Source: an uncultured Chloroflexia bacterium
GTDB taxonomy: Bacteria > Chloroflexota > Limnocylindria > Limnocylindrales > CSP1-4
DNA length: 64,000 nt
Assembly (NCBI GenBank): GCA_963713975.1
Contig: OY970218.1
Location: 2,800,189-2,864,188, forward strand
Direction: 5' to 3'
Position numbers and translations under genes: made by a program
In this document: piece after piece, positions 10,777 through 45,636 of the stretch
Layout of the letters: each line of letters begins with the position of its first letter
Position numbering within the stretch: the first letter of the stretch is position 1
Notes under the pieces: generated by a model
Databases searched by the model: none
What the model was told of the DNA's origin: nothing
Seen by the model: only the letters and a program-made list of their open reading frames with translations

Positions 10777-11760
10777 ATGAGCAGCATCCAGCAGGTTGGC
10801 GACAAGGTCCTGGCAAACGTCGAGCGCGTCATCGTGGGCAAGCACCACGAGGTCCGCCTGGCGCTCGTCGCGCTCATGTGCCGGGGTCACCTCCTGATCG
10901 AGGACGTGCCCGGCACCGGCAAGACGGTTCTGGCCAAGGCGATCGCCCGCAGCCTGGGCTGCACCTTCCGGCGCATCCAGTTCACCCCTGATCTCCTGCC
11001 GTCGGACGTGACCGGCCTGTCGATCTACAACCAGAAGACGCAGGAGTTCGAGTTCCGGCCGGGCCCGATCATGAGCCAGGTGGTCCTCGCGGACGAGATC
11101 AACCGCGCGACGCCCAAGACGCAGTCCAGCCTCCTCGAGTGCATGGAGGAACGGCAGGCGACCATCGATGGCGTCACCCACCCGATGCCGGACCCGTTCC
11201 TCGTGATCGCCACGCAGAACCCGATCGAGTATGAGGGGACGTTCGCGCTCCCCGAGGCGCAGCTCGACCGGTTCATGCTCCGGATCCGTCTGGGATACCC
11301 GGCCCTGCTCGACGAGGTGCTCATCCTCGACGAGCAGAAGCGGACCCACCCCATCGACGACCTCGCCGAGGTCTGTTCCGTGGACGAGCTGCGCGAGCTG
11401 CAGGCCGGGGTGCGCGAGATCTACGTCGACCCCGCCGTCAGCGATTACATCGTCCGCCTGGTGGCCTCCACGAGGTCCCACCCTGACGTCTACCTGGGCG
11501 CCAGCCCGCGCGGCTCGATCGCCCTGTATCGCTCCTCCCAGGCGCTTGCCGGGCTCCTCGGCCGCGACTACGTGATCCCCGACGACGTGAAGTCGCTCGC
11601 GGAGCCGGCGCTGGCCCACCGCGTGATCGTCAAGACGAGCTCGTCCATCCACGACGTCTCCTCGGGCCACGTCGTCCGCGAGCTGGTCGGGTCGACGCCG
11701 ATCGAGGCCGCCCGCCAGGCCGGCGGCCCTCGCGAGGTCAGCCCCGGCCGCGCCGGTTGA
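10777..11760 (+). CDS. MoxR-family AAA+ ATPase
   Basis: Walker A GTGKT within [22 protein letters not shown], and the MoxR-specific [17 protein letters not shown] region. GGGAG RBS. Confidence 0.85.
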
Positions 11761-11773
11761 CGGGTCGATCGCG

Positions 11774-12988: not shown

Positions 12989-15258
12989 GCGAGTCGCCCC
13001 TTCGACGGCCCGCGGAAGGGTGGGCCACCCTCGGCCTCGTGGTCGCAATCGCCCTCATCCTGGGCTGGGCCGTCGACGCCCCGGCCTGGGTGATCGGCCG
13101 CGGAGCCCTCACGGACGACCTGGCGCTGCTTGCCCTGTGCGGGGCTGCGGTCGGCTTCGTCGGCCCCAAGGTGGGCTGGGGGCGCTGGACGACGCACCTG
13201 GTGGGTGCGGCGCTCGCGGCGCTCGTCATCGCCATCGTTGCAGGCTGGGCGGAGCAACCTGGGGCCTCCGTCGCCGGGGCCTTCCGGATCACGGCCCATG
13301 GATCCACGGAGGCGTACCTCGACCTCGCGTGGCGCAGCCTGCCGCTCACCAGCCAGCACATCCACTACATCATGGTGCTGGGCGTGATCGTGTGGGGCAC
13401 CATGCAGTTCGCGTCGTACGCCGTCTTCGGCCACGGGCGGCCCCTGGGCGGGATCGTGGCCGTGGGCACGGTGCTTGTCGCGAACATGGCGCTAACCACC
13501 CAGCCGATGGCGTACCTGGTGGCCTTCACCGGGGCGTCGCTGTTCCTGCTGATCGAGATGCACGCCTTCGACGAGCGCTCCGCGTGGCTGCGCCGCCGGA
13601 TCGGCGACCCGTCGTCGCTCTCGGCGATGTACCTGCGTGGCGGCTCGTTGTTCATCCTGGTCACGCTGGTGGCTTCGATGCTGCTCACCCAGCGCGCCAC
13701 CTCGGCACCCCTCGCCGGCGCATGGAGCGGCGTCGACGACCAGCTGGTCCGGATCGGTCGTGAGGTCGGCCGCCTGTTCCCGGTGGGCGGCGACCTGCGT
13801 GGTGGCGGCGGGGTCAGCTTCGGCTCCACCGCCCTCATCTCGTCCCGCTGGTACAGCGACGAGGGCATCGCGTTCACCGCCACCGTGCCTCAGGACGCAA
13901 AGGGATGGAAGTGGCGCGCCGCGACCTACGACACGTTCATCCTGGGCGCATGGGTGCAGGGCGAGGTGACGACCGTCCCGGTACAGGCCGCCGTGCCGCT
14001 GCTCGCCGGCACACCGGAGGATCCTTCCCCCGACGTCACCACCGCGATCACGACCACGGTTCGCCCGGACGAGTACCGCGACACGCTCCTGCTGGCACCC
14101 GGGGCGCCCACGGTTGTCGACCGCGACGCCAACGTGCTCCTGATCGGATCGGACGGCTGGTTCGCGGGTGTCCAGCTGCCAGCGGGCCGCGCCGGGTACA
14201 CCGTCGAGAGCTCGGTCCTTCGCCTCGACGACGAGGAGGGGATCACCGGCAACGAGCTGCGCGCCTCGACCGAGGACTACCCGACAGACATCTCGGCGCG
14301 GTACACCACGGTGCCGGAAGGCGCGATGGGGCCCGACGCGCGCGCACTGCTCGCCACCATCCTCGAGGCCGCACGGACCACGGACCCCTATGACCTCGCC
14401 GTCACGATCCAGGACTACCTGCGGTCGGACGCCTTCAGCTACACCACGAACCTGACCGGGGTGCCGTGCGATTCTGCGAGCGCCGTCGAGTGCTTTGCCC
14501 GCACCCAGAAGGGGTACTGCCTCCACTACGCATCCACGATGGCGATCCTCCTGCGCGCCGCCGATCCCGGCAACCCCATCCCGACGCGGCTCGTCCAGGG
14601 GTTCCTGCCGGGAGCCCGCCAGGGTTCGACGGAGACCGTCACCAACAGGGGCGCCCATGCCTGGGTGGAGGTCTACTTCCCCGGCTACGGCTGGATCCCG
14701 TTCGACCCCACCGGCGGCGGCGTCGGCCAGCCGTCCGTGATCCCGGCCGGGCCTGAGGTGTCCGCCGCCCCGATCCCGAGTGGAACCGCCGGCCCGCGGG
14801 ACGTCCCGGACCCGACCCGTCGCGGCGAGGGCGTGACCGGCCCGGTTTCGCCCGGTCCCGGGGGATCGCAGCCCGGCGACCGGACGCTGCTCATCGTGAT
14901 CTCGGCGCTGCTCGCCCTGGTCGTCCTCGCCGCGGCGATCGCGGCATGGATGCGTGGTCCACGCGGCGAGGTCAGCCCGGAACTGGCCTGGCGATCGCTG
15001 TCACGGACGGCCTCGCGCCTCGGCTTCGCGCCGCGACCCACCCAGACGGTCTACGAGTACGCGGCGAGCCTCGGAGACCTGGTGCCCGTGGCCGGGGACG
15101 ATCTGCAGGTCGTGGCGGCCGCCAAGGTTGAGACGACCTATGCACGTGCGCGGCTGGGCCCATCACGCCTGGATGCGGTACGTGCCGCGAACCGGCGGCT
15201 GCGGGTCTCGCTGTTGCGCCTCGTACTTCGCCGGCCGCGGCGCCGGGCGGGTCGCTGA
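12985..15258 (+). CDS. Transglutaminase-like membrane protein (TgpA-like; DUF3488 N-terminal TMs + transglutaminase core)
   Basis: Multi-TM N-terminal domain. Papain-like core with the catalytic Cys in GYCLHYASTMAILLR. ATGA overlap with DUF58. Confidence 0.75.
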   Translation: MSESPLRRPAEGWATLGLVVAIALILGWAVDAPAWVIGRGALTDDLALLALCGAAVGFVGPKVGWGRWTTHLVGAALAALVIAIVAGWAEQPGASVAGAFRITAHGSTEAYLDLAWRSLPLTSQHIHYIMVLGVIVWGTMQFASYAVFGHGRPLGGIVAVGTVLVANMALTTQPMAYLVAFTGASLFLLIEMHAFDERSAWLRRRIGDPSSLSAMYLRGGSLFILVTLVASMLLTQRATSAPLAGAWSGVDDQLVRIGREVGRLFPVGGDLRGGGGVSFGSTALISSRWYSDEGIAFTATVPQDAKGWKWRAATYDTFILGAWVQGEVTTVPVQAAVPLLAGTPEDPSPDVTTAITTTVRPDEYRDTLLLAPGAPTVVDRDANVLLIGSDGWFAGVQLPAGRAGYTVESSVLRLDDEEGITGNELRASTEDYPTDISARYTTVPEGAMGPDARALLATILEAARTTDPYDLAVTIQDYLRSDAFSYTTNLTGVPCDSASAVECFARTQKGYCLHYASTMAILLRAADPGNPIPTRLVQGFLPGARQGSTETVTNRGAHAWVEVYFPGYGWIPFDPTGGGVGQPSVIPAGPEVSAAPIPSGTAGPRDVPDPTRRGEGVTGPVSPGPGGSQPGDRTLLIVISALLALVVLAAAIAAWMRGPRGEVSPELAWRSLSRTASRLGFAPRPTQTVYEYAASLGDLVPVAGDDLQVVAAAKVETTYARARLGPSRLDAVRAANRRLRVSLLRLVLRRPRRRAGR

Positions 15259-23496: not shown

Positions 23497-25014
23497 CTAC
23501 CCCTCGGCGTCGCGCCGCTCGGTGTCCGCGAGCTTCCGGCGACTCTCCTCGCGGGCTCGGGTGAGCTTGCCCGATGCGCCCATCCCGTCACCCGCCGGTC
23601 CCGGCACGGGGTCGCGCGGCGTCCGGCCGGCGGCCCGTGCCGCCTCGCGCTCGCCCGTCCGGAAGGCCATTCGCTCGCCGATCGTCCGCTCGTAGCCCTG
23701 GTCCGACGGCAGGTAGTAGCGGCGGTCCGCAAGCTCGTCCGGCAGGTACTGCTGGTCAACGTCGTGCCCGGCGAACTCGTGCGGGTAGCGGTAGCCGACC
23801 CCGATCCCATGGTGCTTCATCCGGCGGTCCGCGGCGTTGCGCAGGTGGTTCGGGACGGGGAGCGAGCCACGTTCCACGACGTCACCGGCGGCCATCCAGT
23901 AGCCACCGCCGGAGCGGTTCGACTTGGGCGCCGTGGCGATGTAGATGGCCGCCTGCGCCATGGCGTAGGAGGCTTCCGGAAGGCCGATGTAGTCGAGGGC
24001 CTGCGCCGCCGCGACCGCAACCTGGAGCGCACGCGGGTCGGCGTTGCCCACGTCCTCCGATGCGCTGATGATCAGCCGTCGCGCGATGAACCTGGGGTCC
24101 TCGCCGGCCGCGATCATCGCCGCCAGCCAGTAGAGCGCGGCGTCCGGGTCGTTGCCGCGCAGGCTCTTGATGAAGGCGGACACAGTGTCGAAGTGTCCGT
24201 CGCCGGCCCGGTCGTAGCCGAGCACGCGCTGCTGGGCCGCGCCCTCGACATGGGCGAGGGTGGGGGAGAGGTGGCCATCGGGATCGACGGCGTCGTCGTC
24301 CTCCGCCAGGGCCACCGAGCCCTCGAGGATGTTGAGGGCCTGGCGCGCGTCGCCGCCCGCCACCTCCACCAGGTGCTCGAAGGGTTCCTGGGCCATCGCC
24401 ACGCCGCCACGCGGCCCGAACGCCCCGGCCAGGCCCCGCTCGGGATCCTCCAGCGCGCGCCGGCAGATCGCGGCCACGTCGTCGTCGGTCAGGGGTTCCA
24501 GCCGCCACACCCGCATCCGGGAGAGGAGCGCGGAGTTGACCTCGAAGTAGGGGTTCTCCGTCGTCGCCCCGATCAGGGTGACGGTGCCGTCCTCGACATG
24601 CGGCAGCAGTGCGTCCTGCTGGGCCTTGTTGAACCGATGGATTTCGTCGATGAACAGGACCGACCGTCCACCGTGGAGCGCCAGGCGGTCCTGGGCCTCG
24701 GCGATGGTCGCCCTGACCTCAGCGACGCCCGACATGACGGCAGAGACGGTGCGGAACTCGGCACCGACGGCGTCCGCGAGCAGGCGGGCGAGTGAGGTCT
24801 TGCCGGTGCCCGGCGGCCCCCACAGCAGCATCGAGGCCAGGTGGCCACGGGCGGTCGCGCGCCGGAGCGGGCCCCGCTCGCCGACCAGGTGACCCTGGCC
24901 CACGAACTCGTCGAGCGTGCGCGGGCGCATGCGGGCGGCAAGCGGCTGTCGCTCGGGCGGTGGCTTGAACAGAGCTTCGGGACGGGCGCCGGGAACGGCG
25001 CGCCTGGGCGGCAT
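23497..25014 (-). CDS. rarA: Replication-associated recombination protein A (RarA/MgsA AAA+ ATPase)
   Basis: [17 protein letters not shown] Walker A, sensor motifs, and the MgsA C-terminal domain. Has an extra approximately 50-aa basic C-terminal tail. Confidence 0.85.
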   Translation of the reverse strand: MPPRRAVPGARPEALFKPPPERQPLAARMRPRTLDEFVGQGHLVGERGPLRRATARGHLASMLLWGPPGTGKTSLARLLADAVGAEFRTVSAVMSGVAEVRATIAEAQDRLALHGGRSVLFIDEIHRFNKAQQDALLPHVEDGTVTLIGATTENPYFEVNSALLSRMRVWRLEPLTDDDVAAICRRALEDPERGLAGAFGPRGGVAMAQEPFEHLVEVAGGDARQALNILEGSVALAEDDDAVDPDGHLSPTLAHVEGAAQQRVLGYDRAGDGHFDTVSAFIKSLRGNDPDAALYWLAAMIAAGEDPRFIARRLIISASEDVGNADPRALQVAVAAAQALDYIGLPEASYAMAQAAIYIATAPKSNRSGGGYWMAAGDVVERGSLPVPNHLRNAADRRMKHHGIGVGYRYPHEFAGHDVDQQYLPDELADRRYYLPSDQGYERTIGERMAFRTGEREAARAAGRTPRDPVPGPAGDGMGASGKLTRAREESRRKLADTERRDAEG

Positions 25015-25638: not shown

Positions 25639-26160
25639 TTGGACGACCTGAACCAGCTCGTGATTGACAACGCCGGCGCTATCGCGCTGGTCCTGGGCCT
25701 GGTCTGCCTCGTGCTCCTGGTGGCGGTGCTCCTGCTGGTCCGGCGGACCTCACGCCTCGATCAGCGGCTCGCCGGGATGACCAGGGGCGGCGACGGCAAG
25801 AGCCTGGAATCGACCCTGGAAGCGCACCTGGACAAGGTGTACGCCGTCGCCCGGCAGGTGGACGAGCTGGGCGCTCGAACCACGGTCCTGGAGCGGACGC
25901 AAACCTTCGCCTTCCAGCGGCACGGCCTCGTCCGCTACAACCCGTTCGAGGACACCGGCGGCAACCAGAGCTTCGCGCTCGCGCTGCTGGACCAGCATGG
26001 CGACGGGTTCGTCATCAGCAGCCTGCACACGCGCACGGCGACCCGCGTCTACGGCAAGGCGATCAACGGCGGCAAGGCGGAGGCAGCTCTGTCGGACGAG
26101 GAGGCGGAGGCGTTGCGCCTGGCGCTGGCCTCGGGAGCGGGACCCGCGAAGGCCGACTGA
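25639..26160 (+). CDS. DUF4446-like protein (N-terminal TM, conserved LVRYNPFEDTGGNQSFALALLD core)
   Basis: 173 aa. The motif pattern matches my recollection of the DUF4446 family. Confidence 0.4.
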   Translation: MDDLNQLVIDNAGAIALVLGLVCLVLLVAVLLLVRRTSRLDQRLAGMTRGGDGKSLESTLEAHLDKVYAVARQVDELGARTTVLERTQTFAFQRHGLVRYNPFEDTGGNQSFALALLDQHGDGFVISSLHTRTATRVYGKAINGGKAEAALSDEEAEALRLALASGAGPAKAD

Positions 26161-26214: not shown

Positions 26215-29200
26215 GTGCCTGCATCGCGACGCGTCCCCACCCCCTTCCCAGTCACCGTTCACCACGCGTCGTCGGAGGGTGGCGTGAGGCAGCGTGGCGG
26301 GCGGTCGGAACCCCCGCCGCTCGTCCAGATCCCGGTGTGGGGATCAGCTGATGAGCCCGCCGACGACGGACCGGCCGCGGAGGGCACGGATCAGCTCCTC
26401 GACGGGCTGAACCCGGAGCAGCGGCGCGCGGTCCGGCACGGGGACGGGCCTCTGCTGGTGGTCGCGGGCGCCGGCACCGGCAAGACGCAGGTCATCACCC
26501 GGCGCATCGCCTGGCTGATTGCGACGAGGCGCGCCCGCCCGTCGGAGATCCTTGCGCTCACGTTCACGGACCAGGCCGCCGACGAGATGCAGGTCCGCGT
26601 GGACCAGCTGGTCCCGTACGGCTACACAGACACCGCCATCTCCACGTTCCACGCCTTCGGGGACCGCCTGGTGCGGGAGTTCTCGCTGGAGCTGGGTCTG
26701 CCGACCGATGTCCGCGTCTTCTCGCGACCGGAGACGGTGGTGTTCCTGCGCGAGCACCTGTTCGAGCTCGGCCTGGACGAGTACCGGCCCCTGGGGGATC
26801 CGACCAAGTTCCTGGACGCCCTGGCGACCCTGTTCTCACGCGCGAAGGACGAGGACGTGGCGCCCGAATCCTTCCTCGCCCATGCCTCCCGCCTCGAGGC
26901 GGATGCCGCGGCCGGGGTTGCCGGGCCGGACGCGGATGCCGACGCGATCGCGGCCCTGGCCGAGGAGGCCCGGCGGCGTACCGAGCTTGCCCGGGCCTAT
27001 GCTGTCTACCAGCGCCTGCTCGCGGAGAGCGGTGCCATCGATTTCGGCGACCAGGTGTCCCTGGCGCTGCGGCTGCTGCGCGACTCGCCATCGGCGCGGG
27101 AGCGCATCCAGGAGCGGTTCCGCTACCTCCTGGTGGACGAGTTCCAGGACACGAACCGGGCGCAGGCGGAGCTCGTCGCCCTGATCGCTCAGCGGCACCG
27201 CAACGTGACCGTGGTGGGGGACGACGACCAGTCGATCTACAAGTTCCGCGGCGCCGCAATCAGCAACATCCTCGAGTTCCGGGAGCGCTACCGCAACGCC
27301 AAGGTGGTCGTGCTGCGGCGGAACTACCGCTCCCGGGCCCCGATCCTCGACGCGGCGTATCGCCTCGTCCGCCACAACGACCCGGACCGCCTCGAGGTCC
27401 GGGCAGGCATCGTCAAGAAGCTCGTCGCCGAGCGCGGCAGCGGTGACGCCCCGGCCGTCCGCCACGAGGTCTTCGTCAGCGGTGCCGAGGAGGCCGACTG
27501 GATCGCCGCCGACATCGCGGCGCGCATGCGTGACGGGGCCTCCCCGCGCGACGTCGCCGTCCTGGTGCGCGCCAATGCGGCTGCGGATCCTGTGCTCCGG
27601 TCGCTCAACCTCGAGGGCATCCCGTGGCGCTTCTCCGGCACGAGTGGCCTCTACGCACGGCCGGAAATCCGGCTGCTGCTGTCGTTCCTGCGCGCGATCG
27701 CGGACCCGAACGCCTCGGTGGACGTGTATGGCCTGGCGGCCTCGGAGCTGTACGGCCTCGGTGGGGAGGACCTGACCGGCATCGTCAACATGGCCCGCCG
27801 TCGCAACCGGAGCGTGTTCGAGATCCTCGAGGAGCTGGGCCGCCAGCCCGGGATCCTGCGGCTCTCGCCGGAGACGCGGGCGAGTGCCGCCCGGCTGGTG
27901 GAGGACCTCCAGACGCACGTCGCGCTTGCCCACGAACGCCCGGCGGGCGAGGTGCTGTACGCATTCCTGCGCGGGTCGGGATGGCTCAAGCGCCTCGCGG
28001 AGACGGAGACGGTGGCCGCGGAGGGGACCCTGTCCAACATCGCTCGCTTCTTCGACATCGTCCGCGCGCAGTCGTCGCTGCTCGCCGACGATCGTGCGGT
28101 GTTCTTCGCCCGCCATCTGCAGACGCTGATCCAGGCGGGCGACGACCCGCCCACGGCCGACATCGACCCCGATGCCGATGCGGTGGCCGTGATGACCGTC
28201 CACAAGGCCAAGGGCCGCGAGTTCCCTGTGGTCTACCTGCCGGGCCTCGTGAGCGGCCGCTTCCCGGCGATCGGGCGGCGTGAGCCACTGCCGTTGCCGC
28301 TGGAGCTCGTCAACGAGACCCTGCCCGAGGGCGACTACCAGCTCCAGGAGGAGCGCCGCCTGTTCTACGTCGGCATGACCCGGGCTCGCGACGAGCTGGT
28401 GCTGTCGCACGCCGCCGATTACGGCGGACAGCGCGCCAGGCGGGTGTCGCCGTTCGTGCTCGAGGCGCTGGACCTGCCGGTCGCGGCCGGTGCGAGCGGG
28501 AGCGGCGCGAAGACCACATCGCCCTTGGAGCGGATCGAGTCGCAGCAGCGCCCGGAGGCGTCGCCGGTCGCCCCGCGAACCCGGGACGGGGAGCCCCTGA
28601 CCCTCTCGTTCTATGCGATCGACGACTACCTGACCTGCCCGCTCAAGTACAAGTACGCCCACCTCCTGCGGGTCCCGCTCGCCCCCCACCACTCGATCAT
28701 CTACGGCTCGGCCCTCCATGCCGCCGTGTCCGAGTTCCACAAGCGGCACGCCCGCGGGATCGTGATGTCCGAGGACGACCTCGTCGCCGCATTCCTCGCC
28801 GCCTGGAGGTCCGAGGGCTTTCTGTCGCGTGACCACGAGGAGGCTCGTCTCGAGGCCGGCCGGACGTCCCTGCACCGGTTCCGGGAGGAGCAGCTGGCAC
28901 CGGGAGCCGTCATCCCGGCCTACGTGGAGCGCGAGTTCAGCTTCCTGCTGGACGGGGATCGCGTGCGCGGTCGCTACGACCGCGTGGACATCATCCCGCG
29001 CGACGGCGATGTCGTGGAGACGACGCGAGTGTTCGACGACGACGCGTCGGCGGACGTCGTGGCGCCCACGCTGTTCTCGTACCCGGAGCGGGTGGTCATC
29101 ACGGACTACAAGTCGTCCGACGTGCGAGATCCGGCCAAGGCACGCCAGCGCGCTAGGGACTCGCTCCAGCTGTCGATCTATGCGATGGGCTACGAGGCAA

Positions 29201-29418
29201 TGACCGGGCGCATGCCGGACGCGGTCGCGCTCAACTTCCTCGAGACCGGGCTGGTTGGAACCGCTCCGGTGGATCGCAAGCGGCTCGACAAGGCGAGGGA
29301 GTCCATCCGCACCGCGGCGGCGGGTATCCGGGCCCGCGTGTTCACGCCCAAGCCCGCCCACATGGCCTGCAGCTACTGCGCGTTCCGGGAGATCTGCCCG
29401 GCTAGCGTGGTCCGCTGA
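26215..29418 (+). CDS. UvrD/PcrA-type SF1 helicase fused to C-terminal Cas4/AddB-like Fe-S PD-(D/E)XK nuclease (AdnB-like, solitary)
   Basis: Walker A GAGTGKTQV, DEFQD Walker B, motifs III-VI. C-terminal nuclease has DYK / D...D residues and a four-Cys cluster (YLTCPLKY ... CSYCAFREIC). Start is ambiguous (GTG 26215 or GTG 26335). Confidence 0.8.
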   Translation: MPASRRVPTPFPVTVHHASSEGGVRQRGGRSEPPPLVQIPVWGSADEPADDGPAAEGTDQLLDGLNPEQRRAVRHGDGPLLVVAGAGTGKTQVITRRIAWLIATRRARPSEILALTFTDQAADEMQVRVDQLVPYGYTDTAISTFHAFGDRLVREFSLELGLPTDVRVFSRPETVVFLREHLFELGLDEYRPLGDPTKFLDALATLFSRAKDEDVAPESFLAHASRLEADAAAGVAGPDADADAIAALAEEARRRTELARAYAVYQRLLAESGAIDFGDQVSLALRLLRDSPSARERIQERFRYLLVDEFQDTNRAQAELVALIAQRHRNVTVVGDDDQSIYKFRGAAISNILEFRERYRNAKVVVLRRNYRSRAPILDAAYRLVRHNDPDRLEVRAGIVKKLVAERGSGDAPAVRHEVFVSGAEEADWIAADIAARMRDGASPRDVAVLVRANAAADPVLRSLNLEGIPWRFSGTSGLYARPEIRLLLSFLRAIADPNASVDVYGLAASELYGLGGEDLTGIVNMARRRNRSVFEILEELGRQPGILRLSPETRASAARLVEDLQTHVALAHERPAGEVLYAFLRGSGWLKRLAETETVAAEGTLSNIARFFDIVRAQSSLLADDRAVFFARHLQTLIQAGDDPPTADIDPDADAVAVMTVHKAKGREFPVVYLPGLVSGRFPAIGRREPLPLPLELVNETLPEGDYQLQEERRLFYVGMTRARDELVLSHAADYGGQRARRVSPFVLEALDLPVAAGASGSGAKTTSPLERIESQQRPEASPVAPRTRDGEPLTLSFYAIDDYLTCPLKYKYAHLLRVPLAPHHSIIYGSALHAAVSEFHKRHARGIVMSEDDLVAAFLAAWRSEGFLSRDHEEARLEAGRTSLHRFREEQLAPGAVIPAYVEREFSFLLDGDRVRGRYDRVDIIPRDGDVVETTRVFDDDASADVVAPTLFSYPERVVITDYKSSDVRDPAKARQRARDSLQLSIYAMGYEAMTGRMPDAVALNFLETGLVGTAPVDRKRLDKARESIRTAAAGIRARVFTPKPAHMACSYCAFREICPASVVR

Positions 29419-29421
29419 GCC

Positions 29422-30327
29422 GTGCCGCAGCTGGGAGCTGCCGCGCGCGCAGCGCTTGACGCCGTCCTTTCGGGGGCCTCGTCAGGGGCGGTCCTCGAGG
29501 CCGACAACCTCGACGTCCTGGCAGGGATGCCGGACAGCGCCGTCGACCTCGTGTATGCAGACCCTCCCTTCGCCACGGGTGCCCGGCAGCGCCTGGTCTC
29601 GATCCGGACCGGAGTCGGCGACCGGACACGCCCGGGGTTCCGGGGTGACACGGTGGCCTGGGAAGCCGTCAGCGATCTCGCCTGGGATGACGATCTGCCG
29701 CTCGACCAGCACCTGGTCCAGCTCGCGGCTCGGGTCAGGGAGGTCCACCGCGTGCTGGCGGCGCACGGATCGTTCTACCTGCACGTGGACTGGCGGACCG
29801 CCCACCACGCACGCCTGCTCCTCGACGAGGTCTTCGGCCCTGAACGGTTCCTCAACGAGATCGTCTGGGCATATGACTACGGCGGCCGATCCCGGGACCG
29901 CTGGCCGCGCAAGCACGACACGATCCTGTGGTACGCGAAGGGCGACCGCTGGCTGTTCGACCGGGAGGCGATCGACCGTATCCCGTACCTGGCGCCGGGC
30001 CTCGTCGGGCCCGAGAAGGCGGCGCGCGGCAAGCTCCCGACGGACGTGTGGTGGATGACGATCGTGCCCCCCGCCTCCGCAGAGCGGACCGGCTACCCGA
30101 CCCAGAAGCCGGTTCGCCTGCTGGAGCGGATCGTCGCGGCCTCGAGCCGGCCGGGCGACCTGGTGCTGGATCCGTACGCCGGCTCGGGGACGACGGGCGT
30201 CGCTGCCCACCGCCTGGGGCGCCGCTGGCTGCTGGTCGATCGCAACCCGCAGGCCGTCGAGATCGCGCGGATGCGGCTGGCGAGGACCGACGCCGGGCCG
30301 GACGACGGGAAGGGGAGCGAGAAGTGA
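29422..30327 (+). CDS. Beta-class DNA N4/N6-methyltransferase (DPPF motif IV precedes FxGSGTT motif I)
   Basis: DLVYADPPFATG (motif IV) and LVLDPYAGSGTTGVAA (motif I) in beta-class order. GTG start 4 nt after the helicase-nuclease stop. Confidence 0.8.
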   Translation: MPQLGAAARAALDAVLSGASSGAVLEADNLDVLAGMPDSAVDLVYADPPFATGARQRLVSIRTGVGDRTRPGFRGDTVAWEAVSDLAWDDDLPLDQHLVQLAARVREVHRVLAAHGSFYLHVDWRTAHHARLLLDEVFGPERFLNEIVWAYDYGGRSRDRWPRKHDTILWYAKGDRWLFDREAIDRIPYLAPGLVGPEKAARGKLPTDVWWMTIVPPASAERTGYPTQKPVRLLERIVAASSRPGDLVLDPYAGSGTTGVAAHRLGRRWLLVDRNPQAVEIARMRLARTDAGPDDGKGSEK

Positions 30328-31133
30328 TCCGGGCCGTCACCCTGGACTTCGGGAACACGCTCGTGCCGGTCTCGGCAGCCGGACTGCGTGGCGTGGTCGA
30401 GCAGACCGCCGAGGGGATCGCATCCCGCCTGGGTCCCTTCGCCGTCGACGACGTCCGGCTCGCCTGGGCCGAGGAGCGGGACCGCCAGTTCCGCGAGGAG
30501 ATCCCGCAATTCCGGGAGGTGGACCTGGCCCAGCGCATCGTCCGGATTCTCGCCCGGCTGCGGGGCATGGCGCCGCCGCCCCGGGACCGGCACTGGGACG
30601 ACGATGCGGCGGCCGGCCTCACCTCTGCCGCCGAGGTTGCATGGGCGGTGGATGTCTACTCGCGGGCGTTCGTGACGTCGCTGGTCCCGGACCCGGCGGT
30701 CGGACCCCTGCTCCGGCGGCTCGCCGCCAGCTACCAGGTCGCCATCCTGTCCAACTGGCCGCTTGCCCTCACGATCGATCGCTACGTCGAGGCCGCGGGC
30801 TGGGCGCCGCATCTCTCCGCGGTGATCGTGTCCCAGCGGGTCGGTGCCATCAAGCCACACCCTGCGATCTTCGCGGCGGCCCGCGATGCCCTGGGCGGCC
30901 CCAGACCGGGCGAGATCATCCATGTTGGTGATGACTGGGCCGCGGATGTCGTGGGTGCCAAGCGGGCCGGCTGGCTCGCGGCCTGGGTCCGGAGCAGGCC
31001 GGAGGATTCCCCACTGCCGGCTTCCGATCGGGACAATGCCGTGGAGCCGGACCTCGAGATTCACGCGCTGGACGGCCTCGAGGGCGCGTTGCTCGCCCTG
31101 ACACGGGCGCCCGGAACGGTCCCGCCTCGGTAG
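30324..31133 (+). CDS. HAD-superfamily hydrolase (haloacid dehalogenase-like)
   Basis: Motif I LDFGNTL, motif III/IV region ...GDDWAADVVGAKRAG. GTG start overlaps the MTase stop (GTGA) with a GGGGAG RBS. Confidence 0.65.
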   Translation: MIRAVTLDFGNTLVPVSAAGLRGVVEQTAEGIASRLGPFAVDDVRLAWAEERDRQFREEIPQFREVDLAQRIVRILARLRGMAPPPRDRHWDDDAAAGLTSAAEVAWAVDVYSRAFVTSLVPDPAVGPLLRRLAASYQVAILSNWPLALTIDRYVEAAGWAPHLSAVIVSQRVGAIKPHPAIFAAARDALGGPRPGEIIHVGDDWAADVVGAKRAGWLAAWVRSRPEDSPLPASDRDNAVEPDLEIHALDGLEGALLALTRAPGTVPPR

Positions 31134-31143
31134 ACTCGCCTCC

Positions 31144-31518
31144 ATGGAGGCACGCGACCGCATTGCCAACGTCGCCCTGCTCGTCGCGGCGGGCGTGGCG
31201 TGGATCCTCGTCGCGATCCTCGTCACGACGCGTGACCCGTATCAGGACGCGATGGCGGGCTATTCGGGTGCCCTCCTGCTGGGGCTGGCCATGTGGCTGA
31301 CGGCCGTACCGCTGGCCTGGCTCGTGGTGTTCGCGAGGCACCGTCGCATCGCGTACAACGGCGACTGGGCGAGGGCGGCGCGACGCGGCGCCTGGATCGG
31401 ACTGTTCGTGACCGTCCTCGTCATCCTGCGGCTCGTCGATGCGTTCCAGCTCCCAATCGTCCTGTTCCTCGCCGCCATCTTCGTTGTCGCCGAGATCACC
31501 CTCTCGGCTGAGCGCTAG
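31144..31518 (+). CDS. Hypothetical 4-TM membrane protein
   Basis: 124-aa hydrophobic ORF. No family recognised. Confidence 0.3.
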   Translation: MEARDRIANVALLVAAGVAWILVAILVTTRDPYQDAMAGYSGALLLGLAMWLTAVPLAWLVVFARHRRIAYNGDWARAARRGAWIGLFVTVLVILRLVDAFQLPIVLFLAAIFVVAEITLSAER

Positions 31519-31526
31519 GAGCTCCC

Positions 31527-32738
31527 ATGACCCAATCGCCGATCGCCGCACGTCCTGCCGAGCCGTTCGCGGACGCCAAGGCCCGGGCCGCGGCCGCGGT
31601 GGAGGCCGCTCGGGACGAGATCCTCGCCCTGAGCCACCGGATCCACGCCAACCCGGAACCCGCATTCGAGGAGCACCAGGCCTCGGCATGGGTGGCCGAG
31701 GCCGTGGCCGCGCACGGGTTCGCGGTCGAGCGCCCGGCGGGGAGCCTGGCGACCGCGGTGCGGGGCCGGATCACGGGTGGCAAGGGCCCGGACGGGGCCC
31801 GTATCGGCATCCTGGCGGAGTACGACGCGCTCCCTGGCCTGGGTCACGGCTGCGGGCACAACACGATGGCCTCGTCCGGCGTGGGCGCCGCGATCGCCCT
31901 GGCCGCCCTGCGTGACGAGTGGGCGGGCGAGGTCGTGTTCCTGGGCACGCCCGCGGAGGAGCGGGGGAGCGGCAAGGAGATCATGCTCCGCGACGGCCTG
32001 TTCGAGGGCCTGGACGCCGCGCTGCTGTTCCACCCGAGCCACAGCAACCACGTCGAGATCGCCCCCCTCGCCTCCGAGGACGTCACGGTGATCTTCAAGG
32101 GGCTCCAGTCGCACGCTGCCTCGGAGCCGTGGGCGGGGAAGAACGCCCTCGACGCGATGATCGCGCTGTTCGTCTCGGTGGGCCTCTGGCGCCAGCAACT
32201 GCCTCCGCACTGCCGGGTGCACGGGATCATTGCCGAGGGTGGCACCGCCGCGAACATCATCCCGGATCGCACCCGTGCGTGGTTCATGATCCGGAGCGCC
32301 GACCAGACCTTCTACGACGACGTCATGAAGCCGCGCTTCATCGAGCTGTGCAAGGCCGCCGCCCTGGCTTCGGGCGTGGAGGTCGAGGTCGAGTTCTCCG
32401 GGTACGCGAGCACCATGAAGCACAACCGGACTCTGGCTGCCCGCTGGCTCGCCAATGCGGAGCCGTACGGGATCGTGGACGAGGGCAAGGACCTGGACGC
32501 GGGGTCCACGGACATGGCCAACGTCTCGTGGGCCCTGCCCGCGATCCACCCTGAGCTGTCGATCACGGAGGTCCACACCGCCGGTCACACCCCGGAGTTC
32601 CGCGACGCCGCCGCCCGGCCGCTGGCAGACCGGACCGTCCTGCTCGCGGCCACCCTTGTCGCACAGACCGCGCTCGATCTGCTCCTCGATCCGACGCTGG
32701 TCGATGAGGCCTGGCGGGAGTTCCGCGGAGAGGGATAG
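31527..32738 (+). CDS. M20D-family amidohydrolase (N-acyl-amino-acid/hippurate hydrolase-like)
   Basis: Metal-binding GHGCGHN, EE catalytic pair region, dimerisation domain layout typical of M20D. Confidence 0.75.
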   Translation: MTQSPIAARPAEPFADAKARAAAAVEAARDEILALSHRIHANPEPAFEEHQASAWVAEAVAAHGFAVERPAGSLATAVRGRITGGKGPDGARIGILAEYDALPGLGHGCGHNTMASSGVGAAIALAALRDEWAGEVVFLGTPAEERGSGKEIMLRDGLFEGLDAALLFHPSHSNHVEIAPLASEDVTVIFKGLQSHAASEPWAGKNALDAMIALFVSVGLWRQQLPPHCRVHGIIAEGGTAANIIPDRTRAWFMIRSADQTFYDDVMKPRFIELCKAAALASGVEVEVEFSGYASTMKHNRTLAARWLANAEPYGIVDEGKDLDAGSTDMANVSWALPAIHPELSITEVHTAGHTPEFRDAAARPLADRTVLLAATLVAQTALDLLLDPTLVDEAWREFRGEG

Positions 32739-32887
32739 CGGGGCGGTTCGTCCCGGCCGGACGCGCTACCATGCCGCCCTGCGCGCCCCGCCGGGCGGCG
32801 GACCCAAACCGGCGGCGCCCACGCTCACGGCGGAGCAACGACCAGGACCCGGCAGCGGGACCGGCGAGCCGCCACGGAGGTTCACCA

Positions 32888-33949
32888 GTGGCCGAGCGTC
32901 CCAACGACCCGGGCGGCCCCGACTTCGCGGCGCGCAACGGCTGGGATCAACCGTACGAGGCGTTCAGCGAGTTCGACCTGCCCACCTACGTCGGCCTGCC
33001 GACGTTCATGAAGCTTCCCTGGGTTCCCGACCCGGCCGACATCCGGGCCCGCAAGGCCGACGTGGCGATCATCGGCGCTCCCTTCGACGACGCCGTCAGC
33101 CATCGCCCCGGTGCCCGGTTCGGGCCACGCGCGATCCGCGAGGCGCAGTACACGACGGGTTCCATCCACTCGCTCCAATTGGGCGTCGAGCCGTTCGAGG
33201 TCCTCACGGTGGTGGACGCCGGCGACGCCAACATCATCCCGGCCTGGATCGAGCGCGCCCATACCTTCATCTACCGCAAGGTCCACGAGGTGGCGGCGAC
33301 CGGCGCGATCCCGATCGTCCTCGGGGGTGACCACTCCATAACGTGGCCCTCGGCAACGGCCGTCGCGGAGGTCCGCAGGCCGGGCAGCATCGGCATCGTC
33401 CACTTCGACGCCCACGCGGACACCGCAGACGAGGACTGGGGCGTGCTGGCCGGGCACGGGACACCGATGCGCCGCCTGATCGAGTCGGGCGCGGTCAAGG
33501 GGCGCAACTTCGTGCAGGTCGGGCTGCGCGGCTACTGGCCCCCGGTCGAGACGTTTGAGTGGATGCGCGAGCACGAGCTCCGGTGGCACCTGATGCGCGA
33601 GGTCGAGGAACGTGGCGCAGAGGCCGTCATCGACGACGCGATCGCCGAGGCGCTCGACGGGCCCGATGCGATCTATATCTCCGTAGACATCGACGTCATC
33701 GATCCCGGGATGGCACCGGGTACCGGCACGCCCGAGCCCGGTGGCTTCCTGCCGCGTGAGCTGCTGCGGGCCGTCCGTCGGGTCGCGGGAGCCGTCGAGA
33801 TCGCGGGCATGGACATCGTGGAGGTGTCACCGCCGTACGACCATGCGGAGGTGACGGCGATGGCCGCCAACCGCGTGGCTCTGGAGGCCATCTCCGCGCT
33901 GGCGGCGAAGCGCCTGGCGGGACATCCGGTCCGCTTCGAGCGGCCGTGA
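32888..33949 (+). CDS. speB: Agmatinase/ureohydrolase (arginase family)
   Basis: Mn-binding motifs GGDHS, DAHADT, SVDIDVIDP. GTG start with a GGAGG RBS 7 nt upstream. The six-frame ORF is longer but its N-terminal 39 aa are low-complexity. Confidence 0.75.
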   Translation: MAERPNDPGGPDFAARNGWDQPYEAFSEFDLPTYVGLPTFMKLPWVPDPADIRARKADVAIIGAPFDDAVSHRPGARFGPRAIREAQYTTGSIHSLQLGVEPFEVLTVVDAGDANIIPAWIERAHTFIYRKVHEVAATGAIPIVLGGDHSITWPSATAVAEVRRPGSIGIVHFDAHADTADEDWGVLAGHGTPMRRLIESGAVKGRNFVQVGLRGYWPPVETFEWMREHELRWHLMREVEERGAEAVIDDAIAEALDGPDAIYISVDIDVIDPGMAPGTGTPEPGGFLPRELLRAVRRVAGAVEIAGMDIVEVSPPYDHAEVTAMAANRVALEAISALAAKRLAGHPVRFERP

Positions 33950-41785: not shown

Positions 41786-43267
41786 TCAGGTGCCCGCGGG
41801 TGCCTCGCTGCGGCGGATCCGTGCCGCGAGCCTCGCGCCACGGCGCTGTAGATCGGCCTCCAGGCGTGGATGCGCCCGGCCGGCGAGACGCAGGCGCTCG
41901 AGCAGGCGCCAGGCCGTGCGGGTCGCTGCGAGGGCGCCACCTGGGTCGTGCAGGCGGTGCTCGCGCAGCTTCGCGACCTCGATCCAGGCGATGGCCCCGA
42001 GCCCGCCGCCACCGGCCGCCGCGGTCTGCCAGGCCTCGGCGGCCTCCGCCCATCGCCCGAGGCGCTTGAGCGTGCGAGCCCGTTCTGCCGCGAGCCGCTC
42101 GTCCGTCCAGCGGTCCGACGCGGTGTCCCATGCGGCCGTGGAGGGCGAGGGCCCCATCGAGCCGCCGCGTCCACCGGCGAGCTCGCCCCGCCACCCGGAG
42201 CGTGGTGCAACACCACCGAAGTGCGGCTGGACACGCGGCGACCACCAGGCGTTCCGTTCCTCGTGGGCGGCATCGCGAGCAACCGACGGGCGCACCGGCG
42301 AGCGCCCGAAGGGGTCCCGGATGGGTGGGGTCGAGGCAAGCGCGTCGTCCAGGCACTCGAGCGCCTCGTCGTGCCGCCGCTCCCGGGCATAGGCGCGGGC
42401 CAGGCCCGCCAGGTCACCCCGGGGCGCCTCGTGGCGCGTGGTCCGGTCCGTGTACCTGTGCTCGATGTGCCCCAGCAGGAGCCCCAGCGACCGGACGTCC
42501 TTCTCGTTGTGGATGACGACGCCCGCGAGGGGCTCGATGGGCCCGCCGCGGAGTACGTCCAGGTAGAGGGACGGGATCTCCCAGCCCTCGACGTCACCCA
42601 CGCGTGACACGCCGAGAAGGTCCTCCTCGACGGTCCGCAGGCGGGCGTTCTCCATGCGGTGCCTGAAGACGCGGCGCACGAACGGCAGCAGGTCCAGGTG
42701 GCCGGCGTGAGCGGGCGCGGGCCGGCCGGCGAGGCGGTAGCGGGCCTCGATCAGGGGCCAGTCGAACCCACGCCCGTTGTAGGTGACCAGCCATGTGTCC
42801 GGCGTCACCCAGCGGGCGATCTCCGCGAGCATGGCCGGCTCGTCCGCATGATCCGGGAGGAGGAGCTGGGTCTGGAGGAACGAGGATCCCTCCCAGCGGC
42901 CCATGCCGACCAGGAAGGCGAGGGTGCCGGCAGCCGTGGCGAGCCCCGTGGTCTCGGTGTCCAGGCAGACGAGGGGAGCGTCGGCGGGCGGGTGGCCGGG
43001 CAGGAGGGCAAGACGCACGCGGTCGACCGGGATGTCCACGGGTGGCACGACCCGCCGGACGAGCAGCGAGCCATCATCCACGGTGACATCGGCCCCGAGG
43101 GCCGCCGCCAGTCGCGCCGCGAGCGCCGGGCTGCGGCGCCCGGCGAACGGGGCCCGCGCCGGCTCCTGGTCCGGCCCCACCGGCGCCCCGCCGGCCCGCC
43201 CGAGCGTCGCACGCAGGTTCGCGAGCCGCCGCTCGCGCGTGACCGGCCCGACGGCCTCGACGGTCAT
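41786..43267 (-). CDS. MrfB/YprB-like DEDD 3'-5' exonuclease with C-terminal TPR-like region
   Basis: RNase-H-like exonuclease motifs (LVCLDTETTGL; YNGRGFDWP). Start overlaps the upstream helicase stop. C-terminal helical repeats. Confidence 0.6.
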   Translation of the reverse strand: MTVEAVGPVTRERRLANLRATLGRAGGAPVGPDQEPARAPFAGRRSPALAARLAAALGADVTVDDGSLLVRRVVPPVDIPVDRVRLALLPGHPPADAPLVCLDTETTGLATAAGTLAFLVGMGRWEGSSFLQTQLLLPDHADEPAMLAEIARWVTPDTWLVTYNGRGFDWPLIEARYRLAGRPAPAHAGHLDLLPFVRRVFRHRMENARLRTVEEDLLGVSRVGDVEGWEIPSLYLDVLRGGPIEPLAGVVIHNEKDVRSLGLLLGHIEHRYTDRTTRHEAPRGDLAGLARAYARERRHDEALECLDDALASTPPIRDPFGRSPVRPSVARDAAHEERNAWWSPRVQPHFGGVAPRSGWRGELAGGRGGSMGPSPSTAAWDTASDRWTDERLAAERARTLKRLGRWAEAAEAWQTAAAGGGGLGAIAWIEVAKLREHRLHDPGGALAATRTAWRLLERLRLAGRAHPRLEADLQRRGARLAARIRRSEAPAGT

Positions 43268-45636
43268 GCGACCGCCTCCCGCCGCACCAGCCCGGCACCC
43301 AGCGCGGCGAGGAGGCGGAGCGCGAGCGCCTTACCGTCCACCTCCGGCTCCAGGCGCGGTCCGGTGCAGGCCGGGCAGCCGGCCTCGCAGGGACAGGCGG
43401 CGATCAGGTCCACGGCCCCTGCCACCAGCTCGTCGTGCCGGTCGAACAACCGCTCGGACAGGCCCACGCCGCCCGGCATCGCCTCGTACAGGTAGATCGT
43501 GGGTGCCTCGTGGTGCGGGGACCGGACCTGGGCGACGAGGCCCAGGTCCCGGGGATCCACCATCAGCAGGACCGCGGCCACGGCCTGGATGGCCCGCCCG
43601 GCCCCGATCAGCGCCACGTCCAGCTCGTCCCGCCTCCAGCCGGCGGCGGCCGCGTCCGCCGTGAGCCAGTAGGCCGTGGTCTGCAGCTCGATCTCCGGCA
43701 GGTCGATGGGACCCCAGCCCACGTTCTCGTCCGTGACGAACTTGAGCTTCTTGTAGAGGGTCACGAGACTCGCGACCATGACCTCGCCGTGGACGCGCGT
43801 GCCGCCGGTTGCGGGGGCCGTCGCGAACACGTCGAGCGGCTTGAGGGTCACGGCGCGGTTGGCGTAGGTGTAGTGGTCCGCGTCGATCCGGTGGACATAG
43901 GCCTTGCGCTCGCCCCATTCGAGGCGGTCCACGTGGAACTGCGCCGACTCGTGCATGTAGATCGCGTGCTGGTGGACGAGGACCTGGGCGGAGAAGAGAT
44001 CCACCTCGCCGAGCACCCTGGGGCGGTCCGGCGTCGTGTCGATGATCACGACGTTCTCGGGGGCGGCGGAGCGCAGCGAGATCTCCGAGGCGGGGAAGTT
44101 CTCCGAGCTCCAGTACCAGCGTCCATCGTCGGCCTGCCGCACGTGGCCGCCTTCACCCAGGAAGGCGAGCAGGTCGTCCGCCGGTCCCGGCCCGAACCAC
44201 TCCCCGGGCTCGAACGGCAGCTCGAACGTTGCCGCGCGGATGTGGGCGAGCAGGACGTGGAGGTTGTCGGGGTCCAGCCGGGCTTCCTCGGGTCGCCCGC
44301 CGAGGACGAACTCCGGGTGATGGATGACGTATTGGTCCACGGGGGCCGGCGACGCGACCAGCACGGCGACGCTGACGTCGCCCCTGCGGCCGGCCCTGCC
44401 CATCTGCTGCCAAGTGGCGGCGATGGATCCCGGGTAGCCGGCAAGGACCGCCACGTCCAGCCGACCGATGTCCACGCCGAGCTCCAGTGCGTTCGTGCTG
44501 ACAACGCCCAGGACCTCGCCGTCCCGTAGCCCGCGCTCGATCGATCGTCGTTCCGTGGGCAGGTAGCCGCCCCGGTAGCCCCGGATCCGACTCCGGGGGC
44601 CAAGGTCCTGACGCAGCGTCTCGCGCAGGTTCGAGAGCATGATCTCGACCGCCACGCGGCTCTTCCCGAAGACCACGGTCTGGCGCCCGGCGCGGAGGAA
44701 CGGGATCGCCCACCGCTGGGCCAGCGTCAGGGCGGACCCGCGCGCCCCGGTGGCGCCGTCGATGATCGGGGGGTCCACCAGCAGCAGGTGCTTCTCGCCC
44801 GCCGGGGCCCCGTTGCGGTCGATGAGGCGGGCGGGCCGCCCGGTCAGCGTCTCGGCCAGCTCCGCCGGGTTCCCGATGGTGGCCGAGCAGCACACGATGA
44901 CGGGGTGCGAGCCGTAGTGCGCGCACAGCCGCAGCAGGCGCCGCAGCACGTTGGCGACGTGCGAGCCGAACACCCCGCGGTAGGTGTGGAGCTCGTCGAT
45001 GACGATCACGCGAACTTGCTCGAACAGTTGGAACCACTTGGTGTGGTGGGGGAGGATTGCCGAATGGAGCATGTCGGGGTTCGTGACGACGACCTGCCCG
45101 GCCTTGCGGATCGCCGAGCGGATGGGTGCCGGCGTGTCCCCGTCGTAGCAGGCCGAGGAGACCTGCAGCCCGGCATCCCGGACGAGTTCCCCGAACTCGG
45201 CGACCTGGTCCTGGCCCAGGGCCTTGGTGGGGAACAGGAACAGCGCTCGTGCCGAGGGGTCCTCCGCGAGCGCCTGGAGCACCGGCACGGTGTAGCAGAG
45301 CGACTTGCCGGATGCGGTCGGGGTGACCACGACGACGTCCTGCCCGTCGTGCACCGCCTCGATCGCGTCTGCCTGGTGGGTGTAAGGGCGCTCGATGCCG
45401 CGTCGTGCGAGGCCACCCCTGATTCTCGGGTCCAGCCACGCGGGCCACTCCCCATGCTCCGCGGCACGAGCCGCGCGCACCTCGTGATGGACGACGCCAC
45501 GGGCGAGTGACGGCTCCGAGAGCAGGTGCTCCAGCACGTCCCGGGTGCTGGCTGGGGCGTAGGTGCGCATCTGCCGTCTCCGGTCTGATATCGAACGGAT
45601 GATCGAATTGAACGCGAGTCTACGACAGGCTGGCAA
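43264..45636 (-). CDS. MrfA/YprA-like DExH-box helicase with C-terminal DUF1998 four-Cys domain
   Basis: Motif I TPTASGKSL, DEAH-like DELH, helicase C motifs, and the C-terminal ACPCEAGCPAC metal-binding cluster characteristic of DUF1998. Confidence 0.75.
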   Translation of the reverse strand: MPACRRLAFNSIIRSISDRRRQMRTYAPASTRDVLEHLLSEPSLARGVVHHEVRAARAAEHGEWPAWLDPRIRGGLARRGIERPYTHQADAIEAVHDGQDVVVVTPTASGKSLCYTVPVLQALAEDPSARALFLFPTKALGQDQVAEFGELVRDAGLQVSSACYDGDTPAPIRSAIRKAGQVVVTNPDMLHSAILPHHTKWFQLFEQVRVIVIDELHTYRGVFGSHVANVLRRLLRLCAHYGSHPVIVCCSATIGNPAELAETLTGRPARLIDRNGAPAGEKHLLLVDPPIIDGATGARGSALTLAQRWAIPFLRAGRQTVVFGKSRVAVEIMLSNLRETLRQDLGPRSRIRGYRGGYLPTERRSIERGLRDGEVLGVVSTNALELGVDIGRLDVAVLAGYPGSIAATWQQMGRAGRRGDVSVAVLVASPAPVDQYVIHHPEFVLGGRPEEARLDPDNLHVLLAHIRAATFELPFEPGEWFGPGPADDLLAFLGEGGHVRQADDGRWYWSSENFPASEISLRSAAPENVVIIDTTPDRPRVLGEVDLFSAQVLVHQHAIYMHESAQFHVDRLEWGERKAYVHRIDADHYTYANRAVTLKPLDVFATAPATGGTRVHGEVMVASLVTLYKKLKFVTDENVGWGPIDLPEIELQTTAYWLTADAAAAGWRRDELDVALIGAGRAIQAVAAVLLMVDPRDLGLVAQVRSPHHEAPTIYLYEAMPGGVGLSERLFDRHDELVAGAVDLIAACPCEAGCPACTGPRLEPEVDGKALALRLLAALGAGLVRREAVA

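Follow-up and report, generated by a model that had tools for sequence, protein, structure and literature searches.

A stand-alone UvrD-Cas4-type helicase-nuclease and an orphan beta-class DNA methyltransferase likely share a core gene array, not a dedicated system, in Limnocylindria-type Chloroflexota

A 64,000-nucleotide (nt) stretch of the genome of an uncultured Chloroflexia bacterium (assembly GCA_963713975.1, contig OY970218.1, positions 2,800,189 to 2,864,188; hereafter, the window) carries three consecutive forward-strand genes, which encode a stand-alone UvrD-Cas4-type helicase-nuclease, an orphan beta-class N6/N4 DNA methyltransferase (MTase) and a HAD-IA family hydrolase. The longest open reading frame (ORF) of the helicase-nuclease spans positions 26215 to 29418 and encodes 1067 amino acids (aa). 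It is followed by the MTase (29422 to 30327; 301 aa) and the hydrolase (30324 to 31133; 269 aa), the latter recognized by Pfam (HAD Hydrolase, 1.5e-16) and NCBIfam. All three genes were recovered by ORF listing and by gene calling based on guanine-plus-cytosine content at third codon positions (GC3). As read in the sequence, the helicase stop and the MTase start are separated by a 3-nt spacer (TGA-gcc-GTG), and the MTase and hydrolase genes overlap by 4 nt (GTGA). An earlier sequence-only reading of this DNA had proposed the three-gene layout, which is borne out by the ORFs, the Pfam domains and the junction sequences. The hydrolase indeed starts inside the MTase stop codon, and the helicase-MTase spacing is tight as described. 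The same reading suggested a defence-like module that discriminates self from non-self, or a methylation-coupled repair module. We instead consider it likely that these genes form part of a vertically inherited core-genome array of Limnocylindria-type Chloroflexota and not a dedicated system.

The helicase-nuclease matches the Pfam families UvrD-helicase (PF00580; 7.5e-74), UvrD_C (PF13361; 1.8e-40) and PDDEXK_1 (PF12705; 1.3e-29). Its motor core, of superfamily 1A (SF1A; UvrD/PcrA-like), covers aa ~65 to 733 (26407 to 28413), with Walker A (GAGTGKT, aa 85), DEFQD (aa 308) and motif III (GDDDQSIY, aa 335) all intact; residues that are invariant in the family alignment include G85 to T91, D308/E309, Q339 and R345. 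The C-terminal nuclease (28600 to 29415) is of the Cas4/AdnAB/AddB-type PD-(D/E)XK class, with a partial match to the cas4 model TIGR00372 (4e-9) and a four-cysteine Fe-S signature in which Cys808, Cys1052, Cys1055 and Cys1061 are all present. Little or no variation is found in the family at the nuclease residues D922, D964-x-K966 and Q985/Y989, and the four cysteines and the PD-(D/E)XK residues are conserved across alignments of 33 and 19 family members. Pfam, the motifs and these alignments thus agree with the earlier proposal of a UvrD-type motor that is joined to a C-terminal Fe-S nuclease of the Cas4/AddB kind and has kept its catalytic residues. Because a GGAGGG sequence lies 4 nt upstream of the GTG at 26284, and because a 100% identical database protein (P0001) has 1044 aa, this GTG is probably the true start and the product would be 1044 aa long.

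Next, the two halves of the protein were compared with solved structures. The motor scored highest with PcrA/UvrD/Rep (~300 bits), followed by AdnB (~180) and AddA (~98), and remained below the NCBIfam PcrA equivalog cut-off (430 versus 911 bits). When the nuclease domain was compared with the PDB as a single sequence (phmmer), no match was obtained, and relatives were found only with a profile built from 19 diverse homologues (AdnB 3e-16, AdnA 6e-14, AddB 2e-6, Cas4 1.5e-5). The description "AdnB-like" consequently holds for the nuclease, whose nearest solved relatives are AdnB and AdnA, but not for the motor, which is closer to PcrA/UvrD than to AdnB or AddA. The full-length AlphaFold model, built from a shallow alignment, was poor (predicted local distance difference test, pLDDT, 58.8; predicted template-modelling score, pTM, 0.37), and Foldseek on that model gave only weak corroboration, with the fold matching PcrA/UvrD/Rep over aa ~60 to 750. 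Pfam revealed no methyl-reading domain in the helicase. We also observed that nuclease motifs II (GRxDRVD) and III (DYK) are separated by an insert of ~30 aa at aa ~925 to 957 (28987 to 29085); it occurs in Limnocylindria-type members with and without the MTase alike, and in none of the distant members aligned.

The helicase-nuclease is solitary, as had been noted: tblastn found no second paralogue in the 64-kb window. The sequence-only reading took a single gene as an anomaly, AdnAB-type enzymes being normally heterodimeric. A search of 50%-identity cluster representatives returned 18,396 matches at E<=1e-30, plain UvrD-like helicases among them. The top 150 representatives were almost all 950 to 1070 aa long, aligned through the nuclease domain at 35 to 53% identity and scored above plain UvrD. 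The UvrD-Cas4 fusion was described computationally in 2017 as the largest branch of pfam12705, called monophyletic, with genes that either stand alone or adjoin Type III Mod/Res or Dcm/Vsr genes and with a proposed ancillary part in repair or defence (Hudaiberdiev et al. 2017, PMC5704561); we found nothing beyond that paper in the literature on later UvrD-Cas4 work or on Limnocylindria methyltransferases. By domain architecture and conserved residues, the window protein belongs to this large stand-alone family. Its solitary state is therefore unremarkable, being the family norm and not the mark of a degenerate AdnAB.

The MTase matches N6_N4_Mtase (PF01555; 2.7e-46). Its motif IV (DPPF, ~aa 47) precedes motif I (DPYAGSGTTG, ~aa 250), both being invariant in the clade, and because motif IV lies N-terminal to motif I the enzyme is of the beta class. 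The best PADLOC model is MTase_II (PDLC03300; 1.5e-106), Type III models reaching only ~1e-30, and M.RsrI is matched at 5e-27; the DPPF motif and these closest relatives suggest that the enzyme is probably adenine-specific (N6). The earlier description of an orphan of this class fits the Pfam family, the motif order and the absence of a restriction partner among the genes searched (see below). It had also been considered that the MTase might belong to a known housekeeping family such as CcrM; the protein falls far below the NCBIfam equivalog cut-offs for CcrM (91 versus 830 bits) and YhdJ (PRK11524; 97 versus 292 bits). A recent horizontal or mobile origin was rejected, given that the composition of the gene is the same as that of its neighbours, phage and plasmid MTases are at most 40% identical to it, and it has diverged together with the helicase, as described next.

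The nearest named relatives of the window protein belong to Candidatus Limnocylindrales. Twelve clade loci on long contigs, with helicases 63 to 87% identical to that of the window, share one array of ~10 genes, in the order rarA (reverse strand), a 154-aa gene (reverse strand), DUF4446, helicase-nuclease, the MTase where present, HAD hydrolase, a 124-aa gene, M20 amidohydrolase and agmatinase. In the window, the divergent rarA encodes a RarA/MgsA recombination-associated AAA+ ATPase (23497 to 25014, reverse strand; Pfam MgsA_C 3e-63, NCBIfam and synteny). The DUF4446 protein (25639 to 26160, forward strand; Pfam 2.4e-42) is the upstream neighbour of the helicase in 12/12 loci, and the 124-aa protein, the M20 amidohydrolase and the agmatinase-family enzyme continue the array co-directionally on the forward strand (31144 to 33949); these last three are functionally unrelated to the helicase, the MTase and the hydrolase. 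The MTase occupies its slot in eight loci (the window, L002, L010, L086, L088, L089, L090 and L091) and is missing from the other four (L001, L003, L004 and L008); in these, the helicase gene runs directly up to, or into, the HAD gene, with no remnant in between. The HAD gene is thus the syntenic downstream neighbour of the helicase with or without the MTase. All other array genes are kept in the MTase-minus relatives, and no gene co-varies with the MTase. None of the 12 loci has a helicase-nuclease paralogue adjacent to the helicase.

We also observed that the helicase-nuclease of L010 is split between two reading frames at 9658 to 9680, and that rarA is likewise split in L001, L003 and L008; these splits may stem from frameshift errors in the assemblies and need not denote pseudogenes.

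To the window, the MTase and helicase identities of the MTase-plus loci are, in pairs, 85/85, 79/81, 80/79, 79/79, 79/80, 79/82 and 65/66%. Because MTase identity tracks helicase identity in this way, the MTase is inherited vertically and is under purifying selection. In the helicase tree, the MTase-minus loci L003, L004 and L001 are sister to the MTase-plus crown, and the pair L010 (with MTase) and L008 (without) branches deeper. In the MTase tree, the helicase-linked MTases, the deep-branching L010 included, are split from all others in 299/300 bootstraps, a result that led us to reject a history of two separate insertions into the slot. Taken together, the two trees make a single MTase insertion between the helicase and HAD genes in the clade ancestor, followed by at least two clean losses at the locus, the most parsimonious history. 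The adjacency of helicase and MTase is confined to this one Chloroflexota clade and is no better conserved there than the rest of the array. In addition, the L010 MTase (11175 to 12035) carries an indel and substitutions relative to the crown-clade MTases at alignment columns ~100 to 125, past motif IV and before the conserved core; this stretch may correspond to the target-recognition region, in which case the specificity of L010 may differ.

Outside the clade, the distant sample consisted of the 19 full-length family loci among the matches listed, which also held two in-clade loci and ~60 plain UvrD/PcrA loci that were set aside. The 19 loci were labelled Patescibacteria, Acidobacteria (Acidobacteriota), Methylomirabilia (Methylomirabilota), Thermotogae and Gammaproteobacteria. 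No homologue of the MTase, the HAD hydrolase or the DUF4446 protein was found within ~8 kb of the helicase in any of them. An MTase near these helicases was detected neither by tblastn and phmmer nor by PADLOC and motif search: no neighbouring ORF contained the combination of MTase catalytic motifs, and no MTase or restriction endonuclease model was among the 25 best-supported of the 75 PADLOC families matched, weak single matches being possibly hidden. Conservation of the helicase/MTase/HAD neighbourhood beyond close relatives, which a joint module would lead one to expect, was therefore not observed (one clade only; 0/19 distant loci with an MTase). The 141 neighbouring ORFs were mostly housekeeping genes (thiolase, PheRS, RmuC, DciA, RarA-like, HrcA/GrpE), and the sole UvrD-like neighbour, in L013, lies on the opposite strand and at 614 aa is too short to hold a C-terminal nuclease.

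Several observations were made on individual family members in this sample. In the unrelated low-GC locus L016, a true RarA gene (12118 to 13371; 45% identical, 2.7e-108) lies ~1.2 kb downstream of the family member, and RmuC and DciA recur near distant members, in three loci each. The presence of RarA, RmuC and DciA hints at a replication or recombination role for the family. The helicase-nucleases of L017 and L018 (Patescibacteria) are without some or all of the cysteines of the C-terminal CxxCx5C motif, and some lineages with reduced genomes may have dispensed with the Fe-S cluster.

The MTase lineage was then followed away from the helicase by scanning metagenomes with the clade MTase alignment, which yielded 80 loci. 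Where upstream sequence was present, MTases 74 to 86% identical to that of the window had the helicase-nuclease immediately upstream in 30/30 loci, and in these helicase-linked loci the HAD gene sits downstream wherever the contig reaches. For MTases 60 to 70% identical, neither helicase-nuclease nor HAD gene was found within 5 kb in any of 48 loci. These helicase-free loci stem from Candidatus Dormibacterota (Dormibacteria) and Acidimicrobiia and show recurrent metabolic contexts, namely, pirin/MFS/HIT, malate dehydrogenase/MTHFR/PurH/PurN and an APH-type kinase, with no recognized restriction gene beside the MTase; the group B loci within L092 to L171 (for example, L093, L121, L141 and L169) illustrate how one MTase lineage occupies three different recurrent contexts. 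The data suggest an orphan MTase that is widely conserved among high-GC lineages of soil and peat. A tie between MTase and helicase, as a joint module would entail, is accordingly not a property of the MTase lineage, which is unlinked to the helicase-nuclease in Dormibacteria and Acidimicrobiia.

We then examined whether the spacing of the genes is unusual for this genome. Among co-directional gene pairs in the window, 19/40 are at most 10 nt apart and 14 apparently overlap, a few of the large overlaps probably being due to over-extended start calls. Because nearly half of such pairs are so close, tight spacing is generic in this genome and carries no implication of joint function. Close packing runs from DUF4446 through the M20, agmatinase and S-adenosylmethionine (SAM)-methyltransferase genes; no terminator-like site was found on the forward strand in 24.9 to 35 kb, the promoter and terminator scan being otherwise uninformative. 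Since the MTase start has no obvious Shine-Dalgarno sequence, the gene is probably translated by termination-reinitiation after the helicase ORF, as would be expected of a promoter-less gene lodged in an operon.

The wider window has a uniform GC content of ~71%, and the genes surrounding the locus are housekeeping genes (MoxR/DUF58, SerA, MurJ, RarA, M20, agmatinase, YchF, FtsH and similar). No restriction, specificity or mobile-element gene was found by Pfam and PADLOC among the genes called between ~10.8 and 52.6 kb, in line with the earlier remark that no restriction endonuclease or specificity gene lies nearby, with the caveat that divergent restriction endonucleases can escape hidden Markov models. 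Two other features of the window are of interest. At 41786 to 45636 (reverse strand), a 790-aa DEAD/Helicase_C helicase with an MrfA Zn-binding (MZB/DUF1998) domain adjoins a 493-aa exonuclease of the RNase_H_2 superfamily with TPR; the two resemble the MrfA/MrfB (YprA/YprB) mitomycin-repair pair, and the COG1205/YprA family has been discussed alongside Cas4-like nucleases (PMC5704561). At 10777 to 15258 (forward strand), genes for a MoxR AAA+ ATPase, a DUF58 protein and a transglutaminase-like/DUF4129 protein form a triplet with overlapping stops and starts, as is typical of MoxR-associated operons.

Overall, we regard a vertically inherited core-genome array as the likely explanation of this locus. 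The helicase-nuclease would be a single-polypeptide housekeeping enzyme in which a 3'-5' SF1A motor and an Fe-S nuclease unwind and trim DNA ends or, alternatively, stalled-fork, replication or recombination intermediates; its domains and the replication, recombination and housekeeping genes around it make a role in repair the most likely one. The MTase, lacking a promoter of its own, would have entered the slot between helicase and HAD a single time, in the clade ancestor, and would methylate the chromosome as a stand-alone epigenetic mark. Its independence of the helicase is evident from the loss of the gene at the locus and from the helicase-free contexts in which its lineage occurs; the relatives in Dormibacteria and Acidimicrobiia presumably do likewise with no helicase-nuclease nearby. 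The HAD hydrolase and the downstream genes would be syntenic bystanders.

Some points weigh against this explanation. To our knowledge, no member of the UvrD-Cas4 fusion family has been biochemically characterized, nor has a structure been solved. In all MTase-plus loci the helicase and MTase genes overlap or lie at most 3 nt apart, an arrangement that persists to ~65% protein identity, so that co-expression may confer some benefit. Moreover, the association of UvrD-Cas4 genes with modification genes, as Type III Mod/Res or Dcm/Vsr, has a precedent (PMC5704561).

We weighed these points under four other explanations. In a methylation-coupled repair system, N6-methyladenine (m6A) would allow strands, or DNA of different age, to be told apart, as with Dam and MutH/UvrD, for use by the helicase-nuclease in post-replicative repair, with one operon coordinating both enzymes. 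The UvrD-like motor, the recurrence of RarA and other replication or recombination genes near family members, and the long-lived, translationally coupled adjacency within the clade are consistent with it. However, the MTase has been lost from the locus and occurs independently elsewhere, sequence features of the helicase, such as its nuclease insert, are shared by MTase-plus and MTase-minus lineages, no domain for reading methylation was detected in it, and its adjacency to the MTase is no more conserved than that to unrelated neighbours. We therefore consider this explanation unlikely.

A related and decidedly unlikely proposal is that the Limnocylindria-type pair is a minimal methylation-aware DNA-surveillance system, in which m6A would steer resection by a single-chain AdnB-like enzyme, either to spare self DNA or to discriminate strands; if so, the lineages without the MTase would have found another means of compensation. 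An explanation as a restriction-modification-like or defence pair, in which the MTase marks self and the UvrD-Cas4 enzyme degrades unmethylated invading DNA, could draw on the tight coupling kept in all MTase-plus loci, on the Type III Mod/Res and Dcm/Vsr neighbours reported, and the ancillary defence role proposed, for the family (PMC5704561), and on generic PADLOC matches (GajB-like and MTase_II). Nevertheless, four lineages keep the helicase without an MTase at the locus, where a methylation-sensitive nuclease would attack self DNA. The 19 distant family loci are without an MTase, and in Dormibacteria and Acidimicrobiia the MTase lineage is found with no helicase beside it. In addition, the locus is core, syntenic and uniform in composition, unlike a defence island; both genes evolve slowly and vertically; and no complete PADLOC system is present, which together leave a defence pair very improbable. 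The module suggested at first, whether defence-like or methylation-coupled, is thus disfavoured by at least two losses of the MTase with the helicase kept, by its absence from all 19 distant loci and by the helicase-free life of its lineage elsewhere. Last, a degenerate AdnAB/AddAB-type resection enzyme whose partner was lost or lies outside the window is scarcely credible, for although the closest solved relatives of the nuclease are AdnB and AdnA and the overall architecture equals one AdnB-like subunit, there is no paralogue in the window or adjacent in the 12 clade loci, the UvrD-like neighbour in L013 is too short for a nuclease domain, the motor has PcrA/UvrD, rather than AdnB or AddA, as its nearest relatives, and the solitary architecture is conserved across phyla as a family of its own.

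As a likely core-genome array, the locus serves as a cautionary case: where a genome is compact and high in GC, neither start/stop overlap nor gene adjacency is in itself a sign of a functional module. The branch of UvrD-Cas4 sampled here (Chloroflexota, Patescibacteria, Acidobacteriota and Methylomirabilota) was found in housekeeping contexts, in contrast to the defence contexts stressed in 2017, and marks UvrD-Cas4 out as a candidate for DNA end processing by a single polypeptide in phyla that have been little studied. For its part, the orphan beta-class MTase lineage is strongly conserved and common to three high-GC lineages of soil and freshwater (Limnocylindria-type, Dormibacteria and Acidimicrobiia); it could account for a methylation motif that spans the clade and that existing long-read metagenomes might reveal.

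Compared with known systems, the locus differs from Type II restriction-modification in that no cognate restriction endonuclease was found among the called genes, and from Type III in that the helicase is an SF1 UvrD-type and not an SF2 Res enzyme and the MTase, at 301 aa, fits best in Type II models. The helicase core matches the UvrD-like GajB models of PADLOC through generic UvrD-core similarity; however, Gabija has an OLD-family nuclease, GajA, which is not present here, and GajB is without a C-terminal Cas4-type nuclease. Among 10 neighbouring genes, there was no complete PADLOC system and no GajA, BREX, DISARM or Dnd partner. Mycobacterial AdnB (PDB 6ppu/6ppr/7sjr) shares with the window protein a UvrD-like motor and a C-terminal RecB/Cas4-type nuclease with cysteine ligands, and the nuclease homology extends to AdnA and AddB; AdnAB, however, is an obligate heterodimer of adjacent paralogues, whereas here there is one gene, with no paired subunit, and a motor nearer to PcrA/UvrD. 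The PcrA/UvrD/Rep SF1A helicases are the best match over aa ~60 to 750, with all helicase motifs, but have no C-terminal nuclease.

The MTase resembles the orphan beta-class enzymes related to M.RsrI, CcrM and YhdJ in its PF01555 fold, the order of motif IV before motif I, the DPPF motif and the lack of a cognate endonuclease, and differs from CcrM and YhdJ in being a distinct lineage common to Limnocylindria-type, Dormibacteria and Acidimicrobiia genomes. Its vertical, clade-wide conservation is like that of other clade-concordant orphan MTases (background in PMC8919816, a metaepigenome paper with which no sequence link to the window MTase was established). The closest likeness of the helicase-nuclease is to the UvrD-Cas4 fusions of PMC5704561, with which it shares an N-terminal UvrD-like SF1 helicase, a C-terminal PF12705 Cas4-like Fe-S nuclease and the state of a single, often stand-alone gene without CRISPR association. 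It departs from that description in that the Type III Mod/Res and Dcm/Vsr contexts are not present here, the accompanying MTase being short, Type II-like and of the beta class, and in that the subfamily sampled around the window protein sits in housekeeping contexts. Overall, the case for a new defence system at this locus is poor; both proteins belong to known kinds, and their arrangement is a lineage-specific synteny.

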